Assembly: GCF_050320075.1 (NCBI RefSeq)
Contig: NZ_CP190018.1
Length of the DNA: 64,000 nt
Source of the DNA: Escherichia coli
Lineage (GTDB): Bacteria; Pseudomonadota; Gammaproteobacteria; Enterobacterales; Enterobacteriaceae
Strand: one strand, 5' to 3'
The notes beneath the pieces were generated by a model. It had not been told where the DNA came from. It ran no database searches and saw only the letters and a program-made list of their open reading frames with translations. A program made the position numbers and the translations under genes. Shown here in pieces: positions 29,092 to 36,337 of this stretch (positions within the stretch are counted from its first letter, which is position 1; each line of letters starts with the position of its first letter).

Positions 29092-30033
29092 TTACATAGA
29101 TGTTTCGTTTAATTCTTCCCGACGAACGCTGTAAACGTCGGTGGCTTTTGCCAGCAGTTCGTCATCATCTGAAAGTTTTTGTGCAATGTATTTGTAAGCC
29201 TTATCCAGTTCGGAGACAGTGCTGTAATTCATCGCTGCGCTGGTAAAGGCCATCAGCATTTCTTCTGGATCACGGCTGTCCGATTTACGCGTTTGCTCAT
29301 CAGGCTTTTTCGCTGGTTTAGCGTTGATCAGACTGTTCATTCCCGCAGCAGTGGTCGTTTGCGGAGTAATGTCTCGCTCAACGCGCGGTGCCGTTTCCTG
29401 TAATTCGTCTGGGGTGTAGACGCCCATGATTACGTCAGGACAGTGCAGGCGAGACCAGCGTTTTGTCGCAAGGTATGCGAGTTGTTGTTTCGGATCACTG
29501 GCCCAAAGTGTGGAGTTTCTTACCTGTGCTTGAGACAGCATTAACTCAAGCACTCGAGGTTGATCCTCGCCCTTCATGGTTGCCCATACGCGAACACCGC
29601 AGCCTTCTTCGTCTTTTAGAGTCCAGCCTGGTGCGATATATGGATTGCCGTTTTTGGATGTTTTCTCAACAAACTTACCGATCACGCGTTCCCACGGCCC
29701 GAACCACTCGTAGTTGATGCGATCTTTTGTTGGCGACATCGTTGAGATAACTGCGTTTACTAATTGGGCTTCATAACCTAGCGTGCCGTTCACAACATGG
29801 GTTTTCTGAGCCACGGCAAACGGGTTCATTCCCCACTGCGCAGCCTGCATTGCCACGGCCATGCAATCAGCTGGTTTCCCGGCGAGGTGCGCCGGTACCG
29901 TTACGCGGCTTTGCGCCATTACCTCGGCGAATTTCATCAGTTGGTTCAAGCCGTCTGGGCTGAAAATAGTTGCAGCAGTTCCAGCGATTGCTGTGTCTAC
30001 TGGTGCGTTGATGTTTGCGATGTCGTTGCTCAT
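29092..30033 (-). CDS. RecT-family single-strand annealing recombinase
   Basis: ORF 29092-30060; start placed at the Met directly following the stop of the upstream exonuclease gene; RecT-like sequence (...GTLGYEAQLVNAVISTMSP...). Confidence 0.75.
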   Translation of the reverse strand: MSNDIANINAPVDTAIAGTAATIFSPDGLNQLMKFAEVMAQSRVTVPAHLAGKPADCMAVAMQAAQWGMNPFAVAQKTHVVNGTLGYEAQLVNAVISTMSPTKDRINYEWFGPWERVIGKFVEKTSKNGNPYIAPGWTLKDEEGCGVRVWATMKGEDQPRVLELMLSQAQVRNSTLWASDPKQQLAYLATKRWSRLHCPDVIMGVYTPDELQETAPRVERDITPQTTTAAGMNSLINAKPAKKPDEQTRKSDSRDPEEMLMAFTSAAMNYSTVSELDKAYKYIAQKLSDDDELLAKATDVYSVRREELNETSM

Positions 30034-30851: not shown

Positions 30852-31147
30852 GCCGCGTCCCTCTGTCCATCAAGCTGATCCGCCAGATCCCAGCGGGCGA
30901 TAATTGCCATTGCCTCTCGCCGATAGGCATCCATCAGTTCTTCGAACTCAGGGCTGTCTTTAGCAGCCTCCAGTACTTCCTGGCGAACGCCTTTAACTGT
31001 TACAACGTCGAAAGTTGATGCCAGTTGATGAAGCCGGATACTCTCAATCAGTTCAACTTGTCGGTCATATAGCTGTTCTGACAGACGGTAGTCCTTGTCG
31101 AATGCCAGCATGATTTTTTGAAGATTTTTCTGCTGATTAACGTTCAT
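30848..31147 (-). CDS. hypothetical phage early protein
   Basis: ORF 30848-31162; the ATG at 31147 sits 2 nt after the stop of the upstream small ORF. Confidence 0.45.
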   Translation of the reverse strand: MNVNQQKNLQKIMLAFDKDYRLSEQLYDRQVELIESIRLHQLASTFDVVTVKGVRQEVLEAAKDSPEFEELMDAYRREAMAIIARWDLADQLDGQRDAA

Positions 31148-31149
31148 TA

Positions 31150-31302
31150 TCAGCCCTCCCATATCTCGTTATCGTTGGCCACATCGCGAGCTTCTTTGCT
31201 GACGAAAGCCCACTTAATGCCTTCCTGTAAGGTGCGGAACTTCCAGCTCATGAATCCGCATGCAGTAACGCAGTACCAACCGTTGATGATTTTCCACTGC
31301 AT
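31150..31302 (-). CDS. small Cys/Trp-rich ORF (50 aa), first gene of the leftward early operon
   Basis: Manually translated: MQWKIINGWYCVTACGFMSWKFRTLQEGIKWAFVSKEARDVANDNEIWEG; GAGG ribosome-binding site upstream; below the ORF-track length cutoff. Confidence 0.35.
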   Translation of the reverse strand: MQWKIINGWYCVTACGFMSWKFRTLQEGIKWAFVSKEARDVANDNEIWEG

Positions 31303-31409
31303 AACTTGTTACCTCGGTCTGTTACCGTTGAGGTAATAATTATGCGTATATGGTTTGATGTCAATAGATATGAGTTAAAAAAATTACCCGTTAGGTAATC
31401 GAATAGGCA

Positions 31410-31435
31410 ATAAAAAAGCCGCCATAAGGCGGCTT
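31410..31435 (-). terminator. intrinsic terminator after the repressor gene
   Basis: Hairpin gccgccataaggcggc followed on the minus strand by a U-run. Confidence 0.6.
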
Positions 31436-31455
31436 ACTTACTGAAAAATATGGTT

Positions 31456-32040
31456 TTATTGTTTGTTTTTTTCGTTCTGGTTGATGACAAATTCAATGTA
31501 ACTTTCGATCTTTGCTTTCTCGGTTTCGGGTAACAATGCGTAGCGCGAGCGATCATAGTTGATGGTCGCAGGGTCGTGCGGGTGAATCAGTAATTCATAG
31601 CCGTGACGCCCGAATGCGGATGCAACATTCTCCAGGGTGGAAATGGAAACGCTGACCTCATTGTTTAACAGGCGGCTGATTGTCACCTGGGCTACGCCGG
31701 ATGCGCGGTGAAGTTTTCCCTGTGTTGAAAGGTCGCGGCTTTCGCTCATCCAGCGTTCCAGGTTGTGAGCCGCCAGCTGGCCAATGTCGCTTGGGCCGAC
31801 AGGCTGAAAACCTTCCTGAGAAAGCGAGCGATCGATATCAAGCCAGTTACGGGGTTTATTGGCGGCAGCTTCAATTTTTCGCGCAACCTGATCGCCGATA
31901 ACCTTCTTACCAAGAGCCCAGCGGTTTACCAGATTTGCCTGAGTTCCAAGTTTTTCAGCCATCCGCGTCTGAACACCATTGAATTCACGGTCGATCAAGT
32001 CGTTGAGATTTTGCCTGCGGACGTCCTGGATACTTTTCAT
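31456..32040 (-). CDS. prophage repressor candidate (CI-like), tandem HTH domains, no recognisable S24 peptidase domain
   Basis: 194-aa protein; HTH-like segments QTRMAEKLGTQANLVNRWALGKK and LHRASGVAQVTISRLLNNEVSVSISTLENVASAFG; divergent from a Cro-like gene across an operator-rich gap. Confidence 0.65.
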   Translation of the reverse strand: MKSIQDVRRQNLNDLIDREFNGVQTRMAEKLGTQANLVNRWALGKKVIGDQVARKIEAAANKPRNWLDIDRSLSQEGFQPVGPSDIGQLAAHNLERWMSESRDLSTQGKLHRASGVAQVTISRLLNNEVSVSISTLENVASAFGRHGYELLIHPHDPATINYDRSRYALLPETEKAKIESYIEFVINQNEKNKQ

Positions 32041-32194
32041 TTTCTGGAAAATCGCCTCATATATGAATCAGTAGATGATTCAATTTAAAGCAATATTACC
32101 CAACAGGTAAATGCACCTCATGGGTAACTATCCTTGATTTTTGTTACCTTATGGGTGAATATTTATTATCTGAAATAAATATCAGGCAATAGCT
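32041..32194. promoter_or_regulatory. divergent repressor/cro control region with three palindromic operator-like sites
   Basis: TTACC-caaca-GGTAA (32096-32110), gCACC-tcatg-GGTAA (32113-32127), TTACC-ttatg-GGTGA (32144-32158) between the divergent genes. Confidence 0.55.
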
Positions 32195-32425
32195 ATGAGC
32201 GATAACGGACATTTCGATTTCAAAAAGCACTGGCTTGCACTTACTCCGGATGAGCGTGAAGCCTTCGCACAGGAAGCCGGAACGACGAGTCACTATATCC
32301 AGACTCACTTAACAGGTAAGCGCAAAATGCCAGGTAAAGTATTGATGAATGGGCTTTTTAAAGCCTGTAAAACAAGACAATGGCTGCGCTCAAAAGCAGA
32401 ACTGGCATACTTCTTCTACTCATGA
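32195..32425 (+). CDS. Cro/CII-like small HTH regulator
   Basis: 76-aa ORF directly across the operator region from the repressor; HTH-like segment AQEAGTTSHYIQTHLTGKRK. Confidence 0.5.
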   Translation: MSDNGHFDFKKHWLALTPDEREAFAQEAGTTSHYIQTHLTGKRKMPGKVLMNGLFKACKTRQWLRSKAELAYFFYS

Positions 32426-32575
32426 TATCCAGCTACAACCCTCTGTAGACCGCCACCCGGCGGTCTTTTCATATCTATTCGTACCTCAAAGGTAATAAAA
32501 AACCAAATATGGTTGATATTTTTTTTGTGTCAGCACAAAATGACCGTAATCCCAATACTAATAACAGGGCTTACC

Positions 32576-32776
32576 ATGGAAATCATTACACGTATTGATG
32601 CCGCAAAGCGCGGACTTAAACGCTACTACACCGGAAAAACATGTAAGCACGGACATGACAGTGAACGCTGGGTTTACAACGGACACTGTGTTGAGTGCAC
32701 CATGGAATCAAACCGTCGTATCAGGGCAGAGATTAAGCAGATCATGATTAATTCCTCCCCACAACATTCAAGCTGA
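32576..32776 (+). CDS. hypothetical zinc-ribbon protein
   Basis: ORF 32513-32776 starts with a TTG; ATG 32576 gives MEIITRIDAAKRG... with a CKHGH...CVEC metal-binding pattern. Confidence 0.4.
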   Translation: MEIITRIDAAKRGLKRYYTGKTCKHGHDSERWVYNGHCVECTMESNRRIRAEIKQIMINSSPQHSS

Positions 32777-32791
32777 TAGCGGAGATTAATC

Positions 32792-33607
32792 ATGAGCAGA
32801 CATGCAACAGATTGGGCCTGGGAGACAGATCCAGGTAGCTCATCATTAAAGCTCATACTGCTCTCGATGGCTGACAGAGCCGATGAATATAACCTCTGCT
32901 ACCCCAGCATAGAACGCCTCGTTAAAGACACTTGCCTGAATAAAAAAACCGTGCAGGCCGGGCTTATATCGCTCATGAAAATGGGGCTTATTTCAGATAC
33001 CGGAGAGAGAAAGGGAGCGACAAAAAGAGTGCGGGTTTTCTCTCTTAATATAACCAAAAACGGGAACATTAAAGGCAACCGGGAAGGGGGTAATGAACCC
33101 GAAATCGGTAATGTTACCGAAAACGGGAATATACCCAAAAACGGGATGTTGAATGATCCCAAAAACGGGATGTTGAATGATCCCAAAAACGGGATCCAGA
33201 ACCAGTCATATAACCAGTCATTTAACCAAGAGAGGGAGAGCAGGACAAAAAGCGGGGATTCTGTGCCTCATGACCCCGGAGCAAACAACGCCGTGATGAA
33301 TAACTTTGTTCCTCCTGGTGGGCCAGGGCAATTAGGCAAATTTGTCATGCATGAACAATGGCAGCCATCAGATGACTTTCTTCGGAAAAGCTCATTGCAG
33401 GGGATCTACCTGGACAGTCTGCCAACGGCACAGGAACTTGCAGAGTTCAGAATTTACTGGATGGCTGAGGGTAAGGCATACCATCAGGCACAGTGGGAGC
33501 AGAAGCTGGCAAGGCGGCTGCAGATTAGCAGACAGAAGCAATCAACATTACCTGATAACAACGTTCCGCACTGGAACAGCCCTGAAGCATGGGAGGATTT
33601 CTTGTGA
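32792..33607 (+). CDS. replication initiator, lambda O-like (N-terminal winged-HTH, iteron-encoded linker, DnaT-like C-terminal region)
   Basis: 271-aa ORF; tandem DNA repeats inside the gene encode a low-complexity linker (PKNGMLNDPKNGMLNDPKNG), as in lambda O; followed by a P-like gene. Confidence 0.65.
   Translation: MSRHATDWAWETDPGSSSLKLILLSMADRADEYNLCYPSIERLVKDTCLNKKTVQAGLISLMKMGLISDTGERKGATKRVRVFSLNITKNGNIKGNREGGNEPEIGNVTENGNIPKNGMLNDPKNGMLNDPKNGIQNQSYNQSFNQERESRTKSGDSVPHDPGANNAVMNNFVPPGGPGQLGKFVMHEQWQPSDDFLRKSSLQGIYLDSLPTAQELAEFRIYWMAEGKAYHQAQWEQKLARRLQISRQKQSTLPDNNVPHWNSPEAWEDFL
33054..33225. repeat. iteron cluster (candidate replication origin) inside the O-like gene
   Basis: Five copies of CC(A/G)AAAACGGGA (about 33054, 33117, 33134, 33158, 33182), the last three as exact 24-bp tandem units, followed by a doubled aaccagtcat. 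Confidence 0.6.
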
Positions 33608-34389
33608 ACAACGTTTTTACCGCGATACAAAACCGTGACGGAGAAGCCCTTTCTCGCATGTCAGGTTATGAGCATCAGTACGTCAACAATGACAATGTGG
33701 TGAACATGTCAGCAGAGAGGCTTGTTGATGCCCTTTTTAAACAGCTGAAACAACTGTTTCCGGCGGCAGTGGTAACCAACCTGAAGACGCCAGAGCAGGA
33801 AGTTGCTGCAAAACAGCAGTGGATTGCTGCGTTTGCCGAAGGGGGGATCCGAACCCGTGAACAGGTTTCTGCTGGTATGCGCCACGCCCGCGCCAGTGAA
33901 TCTCCGTTCTGGCCGTCTCCAGGGCAATTTATCAAGTGGTGCAAAGACAGCAAGATGGTTCTTGGCGTCACCATTGACGATGTGATGGCGGAGTTTCACC
34001 GGTACAGCAAGGAAAAAAGTTTATATCCTGGTGGTCCCGAAAGATTCCCGTGGCGACATCCGGTTATGTACTGGGTCGTATGTGATACCCGCCGTGCAAT
34101 GTATCAGCGCCAGCTTAGCGAGATTGAGGTTGAGAAACACGCACGCAGGCTGCTCGATGATTGGGCGAAAAAGGTGGCTTCCGGACAGCAGATACCCGAT
34201 CCGGTGATCAGCATACAGGCAAAGCCAGAGCCCATGAGTACGCCTCCGGACACAGGGAGAGACGTTTACCATCCACCAGGGCGAAGTTTCGGGTGCATGC
34301 CTAACGCCGCCACCCTTGGGGGAATAACACCGGCGCAGTGGCTGATGGAGGAATACAGGCGGGGAAAGGCGGCAGGATTTATCAAGTAA
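33604..34389 (+). CDS. replication protein P-like (helicase loader)
   Basis: ORF 33589-34389; strong similarity by eye to lambda P (QVSAGMRHARASESPFWPSPGQFIKWC versus lambda QVNAGMRVARRQNRPFLPSPGQFVAWC); GTG 33604 with GGGAGG SD overlaps the O-like stop. Confidence 0.8.
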   Translation: MNNVFTAIQNRDGEALSRMSGYEHQYVNNDNVVNMSAERLVDALFKQLKQLFPAAVVTNLKTPEQEVAAKQQWIAAFAEGGIRTREQVSAGMRHARASESPFWPSPGQFIKWCKDSKMVLGVTIDDVMAEFHRYSKEKSLYPGGPERFPWRHPVMYWVVCDTRRAMYQRQLSEIEVEKHARRLLDDWAKKVASGQQIPDPVISIQAKPEPMSTPPDTGRDVYHPPGRSFGCMPNAATLGGITPAQWLMEEYRRGKAAGFIK

Positions 34390-34506
34390 TACCAGCGCGA
34401 TAGCGCATTTTTTTACGTCTATATGATTACCTGGAAGGTAATAAAATGTTCTAATCTCTATTGATTTCATGTCTTATGTGGTTTTTAATTACCTAAGGGG
34501 TAAATC

Positions 34507-34854
34507 ATGAGAAAACAGATACAGGCTCTTGGTCGACTCAAAACAGGCCAGATGAACAAAACAGAATCTGCGTATTGCCAGCACCTTGAGCTGCGTAAAC
34601 GTGCAGGGGAAATCGCCTGGTATCGATTCGAGGGTATCAAGCTGCGGTTAGCTAATAACACGTTCTATACGCCCGATTTCGCTGTGATGCTCGCCACCGG
34701 CGAGATGGAGCTGCACGAAGTGAAAGGGGGATTCTGGACCGATGACGCCAGAGTGAAAACCAAAGTCGCCGCAGATCAGTATCCGTTCCGAATCATCGGG
34801 GTAACGGTTAAACCAAAGAAAGCAGGTGGTGGCTGGAACATCGAAGAGTTCTGA
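34507..34854 (+). CDS. hypothetical phage protein (DUF1064-like)
   Basis: 115-aa ORF in the post-replication accessory region; family assignment from memory. Confidence 0.45.
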   Translation: MRKQIQALGRLKTGQMNKTESAYCQHLELRKRAGEIAWYRFEGIKLRLANNTFYTPDFAVMLATGEMELHEVKGGFWTDDARVKTKVAADQYPFRIIGVTVKPKKAGGGWNIEEF

Positions 34855-34915
34855 ATCGACGATCTATTTAGTTATCAATGTAATCAATAAGTTATGTGGA
34901 TAAGCGAGGGTAAAG

Positions 34916-35482
34916 ATGGAAAGTAATATCAAAGGGTTAGTTGCCGCCGGGCATGAGATGGCTTCGGAACTGAAAGCAGAATGTGGTGCCGTTGATATGC
35001 GCAGTGTGGCAAAGCTGATCAGCGATTTGGCAACGCAACTGGAAGTGCAACTGGTGCGTGCTAATGCGCTGGCGGCGGAGAGTGCGGCAATGCATGAAAC
35101 TATTGAAGCCGTTCGGAGTGTTGCGGATAACTCCAGTGGAATTGCCGGATGGCATTTGAATGGCGATATCGCTACATGGGAAGAGATTCTTCCTGAAATT
35201 AACGATATCGAAACTCCAGCCACCGATGCTTTCCTGGCTGAAATTCGTGCGGAAGCACGCAACGAGGGGATTAACTATACCGCCAGCCGTCTTGCTGCTG
35301 CGTTCAATCACGGATTTATCAATAAATCTTTGCGTGAAGTTTTCGACGTTACACGCATGATTTTGTCAGCGAAAGAAGAGTTGGCTAATGAACCGCATCC
35401 GATTGATGGCCTGTCCGGTGAATATGCGGAGAAATCCCTTGAAGAATGGGCGGAACAGATTCGCAAAGGAGGCAAGCAGTGA
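34916..35482 (+). CDS. hypothetical phage protein
   Basis: 188-aa acidic ORF with good coding continuity in the accessory region. Confidence 0.45.
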   Translation: MESNIKGLVAAGHEMASELKAECGAVDMRSVAKLISDLATQLEVQLVRANALAAESAAMHETIEAVRSVADNSSGIAGWHLNGDIATWEEILPEINDIETPATDAFLAEIRAEARNEGINYTASRLAAAFNHGFINKSLREVFDVTRMILSAKEELANEPHPIDGLSGEYAEKSLEEWAEQIRKGGKQ

Positions 35483-35778
35483 GTGTATATCTTATTGATA
35501 AACGTCGACGTGGGCAACAAATACCACCTGTAGGAATTCCGAATCACACATGGTTTTGCGTACTTGATATCGATGGTATGGATGCGTTGGTTGACACTCG
35601 TCATTACTGCGATACCGCAACAGCTACTCCGGCGAAAGCAAAGAAAATGGCTGCTCTGATAGAAAACTGGACTCCACCTGATGGTTGGTGCAATGGGAAT
35701 GATCGAGATTGGCATGAAAAAATGAAGGGCTATATCTGCGATTTCTTACGTAAATGCAACGGATTCAGGGTGATGTGA
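35479..35778 (+). CDS. hypothetical phage protein; start uncertain
   Basis: ORF 35446-35778; GTG at 35479 overlaps the upstream stop. Confidence 0.35.
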   Translation: MSVYLIDKRRRGQQIPPVGIPNHTWFCVLDIDGMDALVDTRHYCDTATATPAKAKKMAALIENWTPPDGWCNGNDRDWHEKMKGYICDFLRKCNGFRVM

Positions 35779-35779
35779 C

Positions 35780-36337
35780 ATGAACAAGATTGACTATCAG
35801 GCACTGCGTGAGGCGGCAGAGAAGGCAACGTGGGGAGACTGGGACTCATATAAACCACACCGTGGCGCACGTGGTTATGAGGTCCGACTAAGTAGTCAGG
35901 CCATTGCGCAACACGTTCTGAAAAACAACGCTGAATTTATTGCTGCCTTTAATCCAAAGATTGCTTTGGCACTACTGGATGAACGGGAAAGGAACCAGCA
36001 ATACATCAAATCCCGCGACCAGGAGAACGAGGATATTGCACTAACGGTAGGGAAGTTGCGCGTTGAGCTGGAAGCAGCAAAATCAAAACTCAACGAGCAG
36101 CGTGAGTATTACGAAGGTGTTATCTCTGATGGGAGTAAGCGCATAGCAGAGTTAGAAAGTGGTTCTCAGGCACAAAAGTTAGTTGAAGCAATCATTGTTG
36201 CGATAGAAAACGAACAGGAACGTCTTTTTGATGAAGATTACCTAATGGATTCGAAAGAATGCATTGACGTAATTCGTGAAGAAGTAAAGCGATGGGATGA
36301 TTCCCGCGCCGCTGGCATTGGCATCAAAGGAGAGTGA
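35780..36337 (+). CDS. hypothetical phage protein (Ea22-like)
   Basis: 185-aa ORF beginning MNKIDYQALREAAEKATWGDW with a coiled-coil-like middle. Confidence 0.45.
   Translation: MNKIDYQALREAAEKATWGDWDSYKPHRGARGYEVRLSSQAIAQHVLKNNAEFIAAFNPKIALALLDERERNQQYIKSRDQENEDIALTVGKLRVELEAAKSKLNEQREYYEGVISDGSKRIAELESGSQAQKLVEAIIVAIENEQERLFDEDYLMDSKECIDVIREEVKRWDDSRAAGIGIKGE

Follow-up and report, generated by a model that had tools for sequence, protein, structure and literature searches.

A candidate lambda/phi80-type replication origin inside the initiator gene of a phiV10-like Escherichia coli prophage

The 64,000-nucleotide stretch of Escherichia coli DNA analysed here (contig NZ_CP190018.1, assembly GCF_050320075.1; hereafter the window) carries a phiV10-like prophage whose replication initiator gene contains, between the segments encoding its two folded domains, an array of short dyad-symmetric direct repeats. 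Drawing on sequence comparison and protein models, we propose, with a probability of roughly 0.8, that this array is the initiator-binding half of a prophage replication origin of the lambda/phi80 type, located inside the initiator's own gene. An original prediction, made from the letters of the window alone, had marked the same place as a candidate origin. The features that carry the argument are as follows.

32792..33607, + strand: replication initiator gene, 271 amino acids (aa), with a winged-helix N-domain, a disordered linker and a DnaT-type C-domain
32792..33049, + strand: segment encoding the N-terminal winged-helix DNA-binding domain, presumed to read the iterons
33054..33065, + strand: iteron 1, CCAAAAACGGGA
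33099..33110, + strand: iteron 2, degenerate in the window, CCGAAATCGGTA (CCGAAAACGGTA in relatives)
33117..33128, + strand: iteron 3, CCGAAAACGGGA, with a core identical to phi80 gp15 sites
33135..33194, + strand: iterons 4-6, CCAAAAACGGGA at 33135, 33159 and 33183, with 24-bp spacing
33197..33227, + strand: post-iteron element, CAGAACC and then (G/T)AACC at 12-nt spacing (a doubled AACCAGTCAT plus a third AACC)
33341..33547, + strand: coding region of the DnaT-type C-terminal domain (single-stranded DNA-binding fold), from Pfam
33589..34389, + strand: lambda-P-type helicase loader gene, whose start overlaps the end of the initiator gene

The initiator gene and its repeats

Direct reading of the sequence and a pattern search both recover five exact copies of CC(A/G)AAAACGGGA within 33054-33194, and CCRAAAACGGGA is matched exactly on the + strand at 33054-33065, 33117-33128, 33135-33146, 33159-33170 and 33183-33194. 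In the remainder of the window its single match, with one mismatch, is an unrelated site at 29646 on the - strand. Matches with at most one mismatch number 6 in the window against 0.81 +/- 0.91 after shuffling, and six or more were reached in 0 of 100 shuffles. Tandem Repeats Finder, which had been suggested as a check, reports both expected tandems: one at 33134-33195 with a period of 24 bp, 2.6 copies and 100% matches (unit CCCAAAAACGGGATGTTGAATGAT), and one at 33200-33228 with a period of 12 bp and 2.4 copies (unit AACCAGTCATAT), which corresponds to the doubled AACCAGTCAT already noticed after the iterons. The original prediction was right about the five exact copies but overlooked a sixth, mutated one at 33099-33110. 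The 24-bp tandem that it described is real, but comprises 2.6 exact copies and not three complete exact units: the proposed unit gatcccaaaaacgggatgttgaat is complete only once, as the first unit begins with ATA and not GAT and the third ends with CCAGAAC.

Six dyad-symmetric direct repeats thus lie within 33054-33194, at the junction of DNA-binding domain and C-domain and inside the open reading frame (ORF), all of them in a single reading phase. Iterons 4-6 each carry a dyad of the form ATCCC/GGGAT or ACCC/GGGAT. Iteron 2 reads CCGAAAACGGTA in 74 of 75 distinct related sequences, the T at 33105 being private to the window, and position C33061 of iteron 1 is A in 8 of 75. The A-to-T change at 33105, absent from the 74 other distinct related sequences, replaces Asn by Ile (ENGN to EIGN); E. 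coli strain YZLc1-3 has a sequence identical to the window, T at 33105 included, its chromosome showing 100% identity over 401 bp. The 24-bp unit has 2-6 copies, and an 18-bp unit 1-4, across 80 close IMG/VR loci. Such polymorphism in copy number, as found between lambda and Shiga toxin (Stx) phages, favours the origin interpretation.

The array lies, as originally claimed, inside ORF 32792-33607 and between the two domains of the encoded protein. In Pfam, the initiator has HTH_36 over aa 18-67 (E = 4e-10) and DnaT over aa 184-252 (E = 2e-15), and in PHROGs it falls into phrog_1032, 'replication initiation protein' (E = 2e-107). In an AlphaFold2 model built from a 31-sequence alignment, the predicted local distance difference test (pLDDT) score is 80-95 for aa 1-88, below 50 (about 30) for aa 89-178 and 79-89 for aa 179-254. 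The modelled N-domain has four helices and a beta-hairpin wing (H3-11, H17-28, H40-47, H51-63, E67-74, E80-85), and its Foldseek matches are MarR-type and generic winged-helix DNA binders, including plasmid Rep N-domains. This domain extends to about aa 86-88, the first iteron begins with codon 88 and the repeats encode aa 88-145. With aa 89-178 predicted to be disordered, the model supports the earlier suggestion that the repeat-encoded segment is a flexible linker. The C-domain retrieves the DnaT C-domain in a sequence search of the PDB (E about 1e-20) and the DnaT single-stranded DNA-binding structure 4ou6 in Foldseek (target-normalised TM-score 0.90). Immediately downstream lies the P-type loader gene, whose product is, as had been stated, a clear homologue of lambda P (Pfam Phage_lambda_P, E = 2e-56; phrog_109, 'P-like helicase loader', E = 5e-92). 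The combination of HTH_36, DnaT_C and an adjacent P homologue corresponds to the PHROG 1032 or DopC-like architecture.

How far the initiator can be called O-like differs between its two halves. Its sequence does not match Pfam PF04492 (Phage_rep_O) and shows no similarity to lambda O in BLASTP, and the C-domain is of the DnaT type and not of the P-interacting type found in lambda O. A profile of 13 family N-domains aligned by hhalign with a 12-sequence lambda-O N-domain alignment gave a probability of 84% (E = 7e-6), pairing window aa 35-83 with lambda O aa 67-115, that is, the helix-turn-helix and wing just before the iterons in both genes; with a two-sequence profile the probability was only 19%. 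The initiator and lambda O also both match the N-terminal parts of phrog_678 and phrog_345, and an HHpred analysis by Brezellec et al. (2017, PMC5509034) reported HTH_36 in lambda O. In view of the alignment with the larger profile, the common PHROG matches and the HHpred report, the N-domain is probably related, if remotely, by homology to the O DNA-binding domain, and would have kept essentially the same recognition sequence. The label 'O-like' in the original prediction is therefore appropriate for the N-terminal DNA-binding domain, as a remote homologue, and not for the C-domain.

DNA-level conservation and inheritance of the array

For comparison with defined origins we retrieved the records of lambda and phi80 (NC_021190). 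The iteron sequence is related to the defined O and gp15 binding sites. Four gp15 binding sites are annotated in the phi80 record (TTCCCGAAAACGGGAA, TTCCCGAAATCAGGAA, TTCCCGAAAACGGTAG and ACCGGAAACGGGAA), and the window core CCGAAAACGGGAA is identical to an annotated gp15 site core; the window sequence ACCGAAAACGGGAA has 13 consecutive bases in common with the phi80 site TTCCCGAAAACGGGAA, and TCCCAAAAACGGGAT is one core base off. The lambda iterons (ATCCCTCAAAACGAGGGA and variants, at spacings of 20, 24 and 23 bp) start at O codon 117, right after the DNA-binding domain. The arrangement is thus collinear with ori-lambda in gene O, as the original prediction had it, and likewise with ori-phi80 in gene 15.

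Repeats inside a coding sequence may also be conserved for the peptide that they encode. The array could be a low-complexity linker repeat acting at the protein level (xKNGx), expanded by slippage and devoid of DNA function, which would be consistent with the disordered linker, with whole-unit copy-number variation among close relatives and with the one frame occupied by all copies in the window. The codons argue otherwise. Where aligned residues are the same, the codons of the 24-bp unit are identical in 26 of 29 cases (90%; window, GF-2, Her and AB1), whereas those of the adjacent N-domain are identical in 214 of 588 (36%; six lineages pooled), giving a Fisher p of 9e-9 for pairs that are not independent. 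Within the unit, only CCC is used for Pro and only TTG for Leu, with GGG or GGT for Gly. The CCC...GGG dyad arms persist even though the residues between lineages vary (PKNG, PKIG, PKFG, PNIG, PIYG and PENG), and in GF-2, Bcep176 and EBPR1 the DNA core is read in all three phases, yielding the unrelated peptides TKNG, SQKRD and PKTE. A peptide repeat would also leave the identity of the core with phi80 gp15 sites unaccounted for.

The inheritance of the array points in the same direction. A tblastn search with the N-domain against 50,697 phage records returned 124 records, from which we read representatives at 42-58% identity: Edwardsiella phage GF-2, Vibrio phage Her, Acinetobacter phages AB1 and AP22, E. 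coli phage PPompW, Burkholderia phage Bcep176 and the metagenomic EBPR podovirus 1. All of them have 3-8 sites of the same kind directly after the N-domain (CCC or CCG, an A/T-rich centre, GGG or CGG), examples being GATCCCAAAATTGGGATTTTGAAT three times in GF-2, CCCGAAAACGGTACTTTGAATAGG five times in Her and GTCCCAAAAACGGGAC in EBPR1. Counted by lineage, the matches to the 10-mer core that fall within gene positions 240-480 are 6/6, 6/6, 5/5, 4/4, 3/3, 6/6, 6/6 and 8/9. The repeats are therefore neither absent nor degenerate in relatives with the same initiator, the array being present in all N-domain relatives down to 42% identity. At least four different types of C-domain are joined to this N-domain: DnaT-type in the window and PPompW, lambda-O type in GF-2 (whose initiator belongs to PHROG 391, also matched by the C-half of lambda O) and others in Her, AB1 and Bcep176. 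Conversely, Enterobacter phage Tyrion and a Klebsiella phage have kept the DnaT-type C-domain and P (about 80% DNA identity) with an unrelated N-domain, and the array repeats are absent from both of their initiators. Since the array is present with any C-domain and absent where the N-domain is swapped, it is, judging from these genomes, inherited with the N-domain and not with the C-domain or the loader, which is the classical lambdoid pattern.

Codon identity, dyad retention, frame independence, co-inheritance with the N-domain and identity with the phi80 gp15 sites together show, on this comparative evidence, that the repeats are DNA elements and more than a repeated peptide. A repeat at the peptide level alone is highly improbable, the more so as replacement of the N-domain is always accompanied by loss of the array, and the repeats are almost certainly initiator binding sites, as far as sequence can tell.

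Other linkers in this position carry repeats of their own. In the Tyrion initiator gene (locus L008, 1160-1183), the linker contains a perfect GGATCAG tandem of 3.4 copies with three GATC sites, which may be that lineage's own cis element. N-domain relatives at about 30% identity have quite different repeats in the same place: GGTGGGGCAGGAGCTGCCC three times in gene O of Stx phage 24B (L202, 1590-1660), CCCCGCAG-N-TGCACC seven times in Pseudomonas phage phi2 (L204, 1520-1650) and a 39-bp unit twice in Aeromonas phage 51 (L203, 1565-1650).

It is also conceivable that the array is chiefly a recombination hotspot or module junction for the shuffling of initiator domains and not a functional site. 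Such a role would fit the chimeras in which at least four C-domains follow this N-domain, joined just past the array, and the frequent breaks of assemblies and ORF calls within the array. A database search with the 96-aa N-domain returned nearly all fragments, and assemblies and gene calls seem to break at the array repeats. Shuffling at the boundary is, though, expected of any two-domain protein, and a hotspot leaves both the frame-independent conservation of the dyads and the identity with known sites unexplained. We give this possibility the least credence of all those considered; a hotspot would be a consequence of the array and not its function. Among individual records, the linear sequence of O157 typing phage 10 (KP869108.1) begins and ends within the initiator gene beside the array, and truncation near it is seen in two protein clusters, one of 97 aa (62 member sequences) and one of 119 aa (48). 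At the end of the record of phage BP9 (PP488543.1, 138 kb, classified as a large lytic Vequintavirus; 134.3-137 kb), a phiV10-type initiator/P module is found that is 98% identical to the window and has one 24-bp unit fewer, which looks like an assembly chimera or contamination and not biology.

Right flank, mechanism and genomic context

C[AG]GAAC stands directly after the last iteron in 9 of 11 lineages and in two reading frames (QN.. or ..RT..), including Stx phage 24B with its GGGCAGGAGCTGCCC iterons and Pseudomonas phi2 with its CCCCGCAG-N-TGCACC iterons. It is followed by three or four NAAC(C/A) motifs at distances of 9-13 nt, in the window by (G/T)AACC every 12 nt; in Vibrio phage Her two copies of AACCAGTCAT lie 13 bp apart and hence in different frames. 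Only one 30-mer of the gene is less stable than the post-iteron 30-mer, for which z is 1.44 at 57-60% A+T; by the same measure within the gene, this segment ranks first or second in the window, GF-2, Her and Bcep176. The element may be an unwinding element or a second binding or recognition site, and is a candidate for either. We put forward only tentatively, and with more doubt than belief, that CAGAACC and the (G/T)AAC(C/A) repeats form a distinct conserved origin component substituting for the AT-rich tract of lambda. Such a component could offer a specific sequence for single-strand or host-factor binding, comparable in function to the 13-mers of oriC and plasmid origins, and if this is true the same element would be used across a large superfamily of winged-helix phage initiators.

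We infer initiator binding, unwinding and origin firing at the array by analogy with lambda and phi80. The winged-helix N-domain would bind, probably as dimers, to five to six dyad iterons of the form (A/T)CC(C)-RAAAAC-GGGA(T), spaced 18-24 bp apart, and the bound initiators would assemble into an O-some-like nucleoprotein complex. This complex would stress and open the adjacent CAGAACC/(G/T)AACC segment at 33197-33227. The DnaT-type C-domain, together with the C-terminal tail, would recruit the P-like loader carrying host DnaB, and the C-domain may in addition hold the single-stranded DNA exposed by opening. As the iterons have to keep the coding frame, they would be translated into a disordered linker rich in Asn, Gly, Pro and Lys. 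At 11 of 80 related loci, the initiator has an alternative C-tail (...LDWHNTDWIDEVWDEINSRTS or ...RRIQFCRQKSGEVRKSLDWHNTDWIDEVWDEINSRTS) that resembles the lambda O tail ...LDLTNTDWIYGVDL, and at the same 11 loci the first ~90 residues of P differ while the rest of P is the same (L029 1501-3091; window 33500-33860). This co-variation could reflect a contact between tail and P or, equally, one recombination block across the gene junction.

Several observations weigh against an origin at this place. The private mutation in iteron 2 and the variation in iteron 1 imply that some copies need not be functional, and the argument from frame independence depends on relatives, since the window iterons are all in one phase. 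The C-domain is not of the lambda-O type, so that its manner of coupling to P is conjectural. A lambda-style AT-rich tract was looked for next to the array and not found (z = 1.44 here and 3.3 in lambda), and the least stable DNA of the neighbourhood is intergenic.

These last two points slightly favour a different role, in which the repeats are true initiator sites serving autoregulation, copy control or handcuffing, while opening occurs elsewhere, for example in the AT-rich intergenic segments at 32059-32185 or 32493-32522. Control roles of this sort are known for iterons in plasmids. These intergenic segments, however, coincide with the promoter-operator region of the repressor and cro-like genes, and DNA-level conservation of the post-iteron segment extends across lineages, in four of which at most one other 30-mer of the gene is less stable. 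In chimeras such as GF-2, the N-domain, the iterons and the GAACC repeats move as one module, and the homologous array is the origin in both lambda and phi80 (PMC7466680). A purely regulatory array is thus improbable, if less so than a peptide repeat. An origin of the lambda/phi80 type remains our preferred interpretation because the excess of repeats over chance, the architecture, the co-inheritance with the N-domain, the constraint on the DNA, the identity with phi80 sites and the probable remote homology to O all support it.

Two further features of the + strand belong to the surroundings of the array.

33228..33258, + strand: purine-rich tract AAGAGAGGGAGAGCAGGACAAAAAGCGGGGA to the right of the repeats, with 40-nt windows of 70-78% purine
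32141..32169, + strand: sigma-70-like rightward promoter match between the repressor and cro-like genes, with 9/12 consensus positions, of a type found at chance frequency

The promoter match, whose location corresponds to the divergent repressor/cro region of phiV10, is a possible source of transcription through the origin. Promoter and terminator matches in the region as a whole occur at chance frequency, and two minus-strand 'terminators' called within the array were rejected as by-products of the iteron dyad and a T-run. A scan of 31000-36000 against Rfam at E <= 1 gave nothing relevant. There are no DnaA boxes near the array, and their total in the window is at chance level; a perfect box, TTATCCACA, lies on the - strand at 34895-34903 in an AT-rich short intergenic region past the DUF1064 gene, 1.7 kb right of the array. 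Three GATC sites fall within 39 bp of the array, with comparable clusters elsewhere in the phage genome. The end of the small upstream ORF and the initiator start codon are flanked by the arms of a perfect 11-nt inverted repeat, TCATGATTAAT at 32742-32752 and ATTAATCATGA at 32785-32795, with a conceivable effect on translation initiation or coupling.

With phiV10 and other epsilon15-like podoviruses (Uetakevirus) the segment shares 98-99.8% identity and the layout of its genes: a divergent repressor, a cro-like gene, a small ORF, the initiator, P and the DUF1064 gene. In 421 of 5426 complete E. coli genomes (~8%) the array region is present, and annotation of the gene there goes no further than 'DnaT-like ssDNA-binding domain-containing protein'. 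No origin or repeat is marked at this place in any record examined. The initiator and P genes are the sole replication module of whole phiV10-like genomes, including 41-kb circular records without a plasmid rep gene. In the plasmid collection, the two full-length matches are whole phage genomes (41-kb circles) and not mini-replicons, and 11 others match the C-domain/P part only, which is weak support for autonomous replication. The circular records NZ_CP079771.1 and NZ_CP079768.1, 41,027-bp 'plasmids' of E. coli from ducks, are complete phiV10-like genomes with an integrase and no plasmid replication gene, and represent either episomes or phage DNA from induction that was assembled as a plasmid.

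Relation to known origins

The kind of element described here is textbook, and the pairing of HTH_36 and DnaT_C beside P has already been described for DopC/DopE (PMC5509034). In the literature library that we searched, no publication contains the iteron sequence and none discusses an origin for phiV10 or epsilon15. On the sequence evidence, the array is a well-supported, unannotated new member of the lambda/phi80 origin class, with a swapped C-domain and an unusual right flank. It gives phiV10/epsilon15-like (Uetakevirus) prophages, whose module is present in about 8% of complete E. coli genomes, a concrete candidate origin, and extends the lambda rule, by which DNA-binding domain and iterons travel as one module, to a wide superfamily of HTH_36-type initiators in phages of Gamma- and Betaproteobacteria. 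The array also accounts for the frequent breaks of assemblies and gene calls in the initiator gene. PhiV10 serves as a reporter and engineering phage, and the array is a sequence that should not be freely recoded in phage engineering.

Among the closest known systems is ori-phi80 in gene 15: four to six iterons with the same core lie in the initiator gene right after the DNA-binding domain, and the gene for a P-type loader (gene 14) comes next. In contrast to the window protein, whose N-domain has no BLAST similarity to O and whose C-domain is DnaT-type, gp15 is a full homologue of lambda O (39% identity, Pfam Phage_rep_O type); the phi80 iterons are spaced at 20-21 bp against 18-24 bp in the window, and the right flank differs. 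In iteron plasmids such as those with RK2 oriV, a winged-helix Rep binds the iterons and the unwinding element contains repeated 13-mers. The window resembles them in that short direct repeats at a spacing of about one helical turn adjoin the iterons, whereas the plasmid unwinding elements are AT-rich and intergenic, the window repeats are ~60% A+T and translated, and nothing points to homology.

With ori-lambda in gene O, whose general description we take from PMC7466680, the array has in common dyad-symmetric, A-tract-centred iterons on the plan CCC-AAAAC-GGG, a location in a mid-gene linker and P downstream. The lambda arms are 2 bp longer, lambda O has a Phage_rep_O N-domain and its own C-domain, and a strong AT-rich tract to the right of lambda iteron 4 is the least stable 30-mer in 2.4 kb (z = 3.32, against z = 1.44 in the window). 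Stx-phage origins (933W, P27) have six iterons where lambda has four (PMC7466680), a variability in number that parallels the 2-6 copies of the 24-bp unit in the window family; they are close relatives of lambda O and ori, whereas the window locus is only a remote one. The same domain composition is found in DopC/DopE of Cellvibrionales and Oceanospirillales, in which a protein with HTH_36 and a DnaT C-domain is followed by a lambda-P homologue (PMC5509034). Brezellec et al. (2017, PMC5509034) found no iterons in the gene for DopC, which is chromosomal and domesticated, whereas the phage gene retains a full iteron array and looks like the undomesticated, iteron-bearing state of the DopC/DopE pair.

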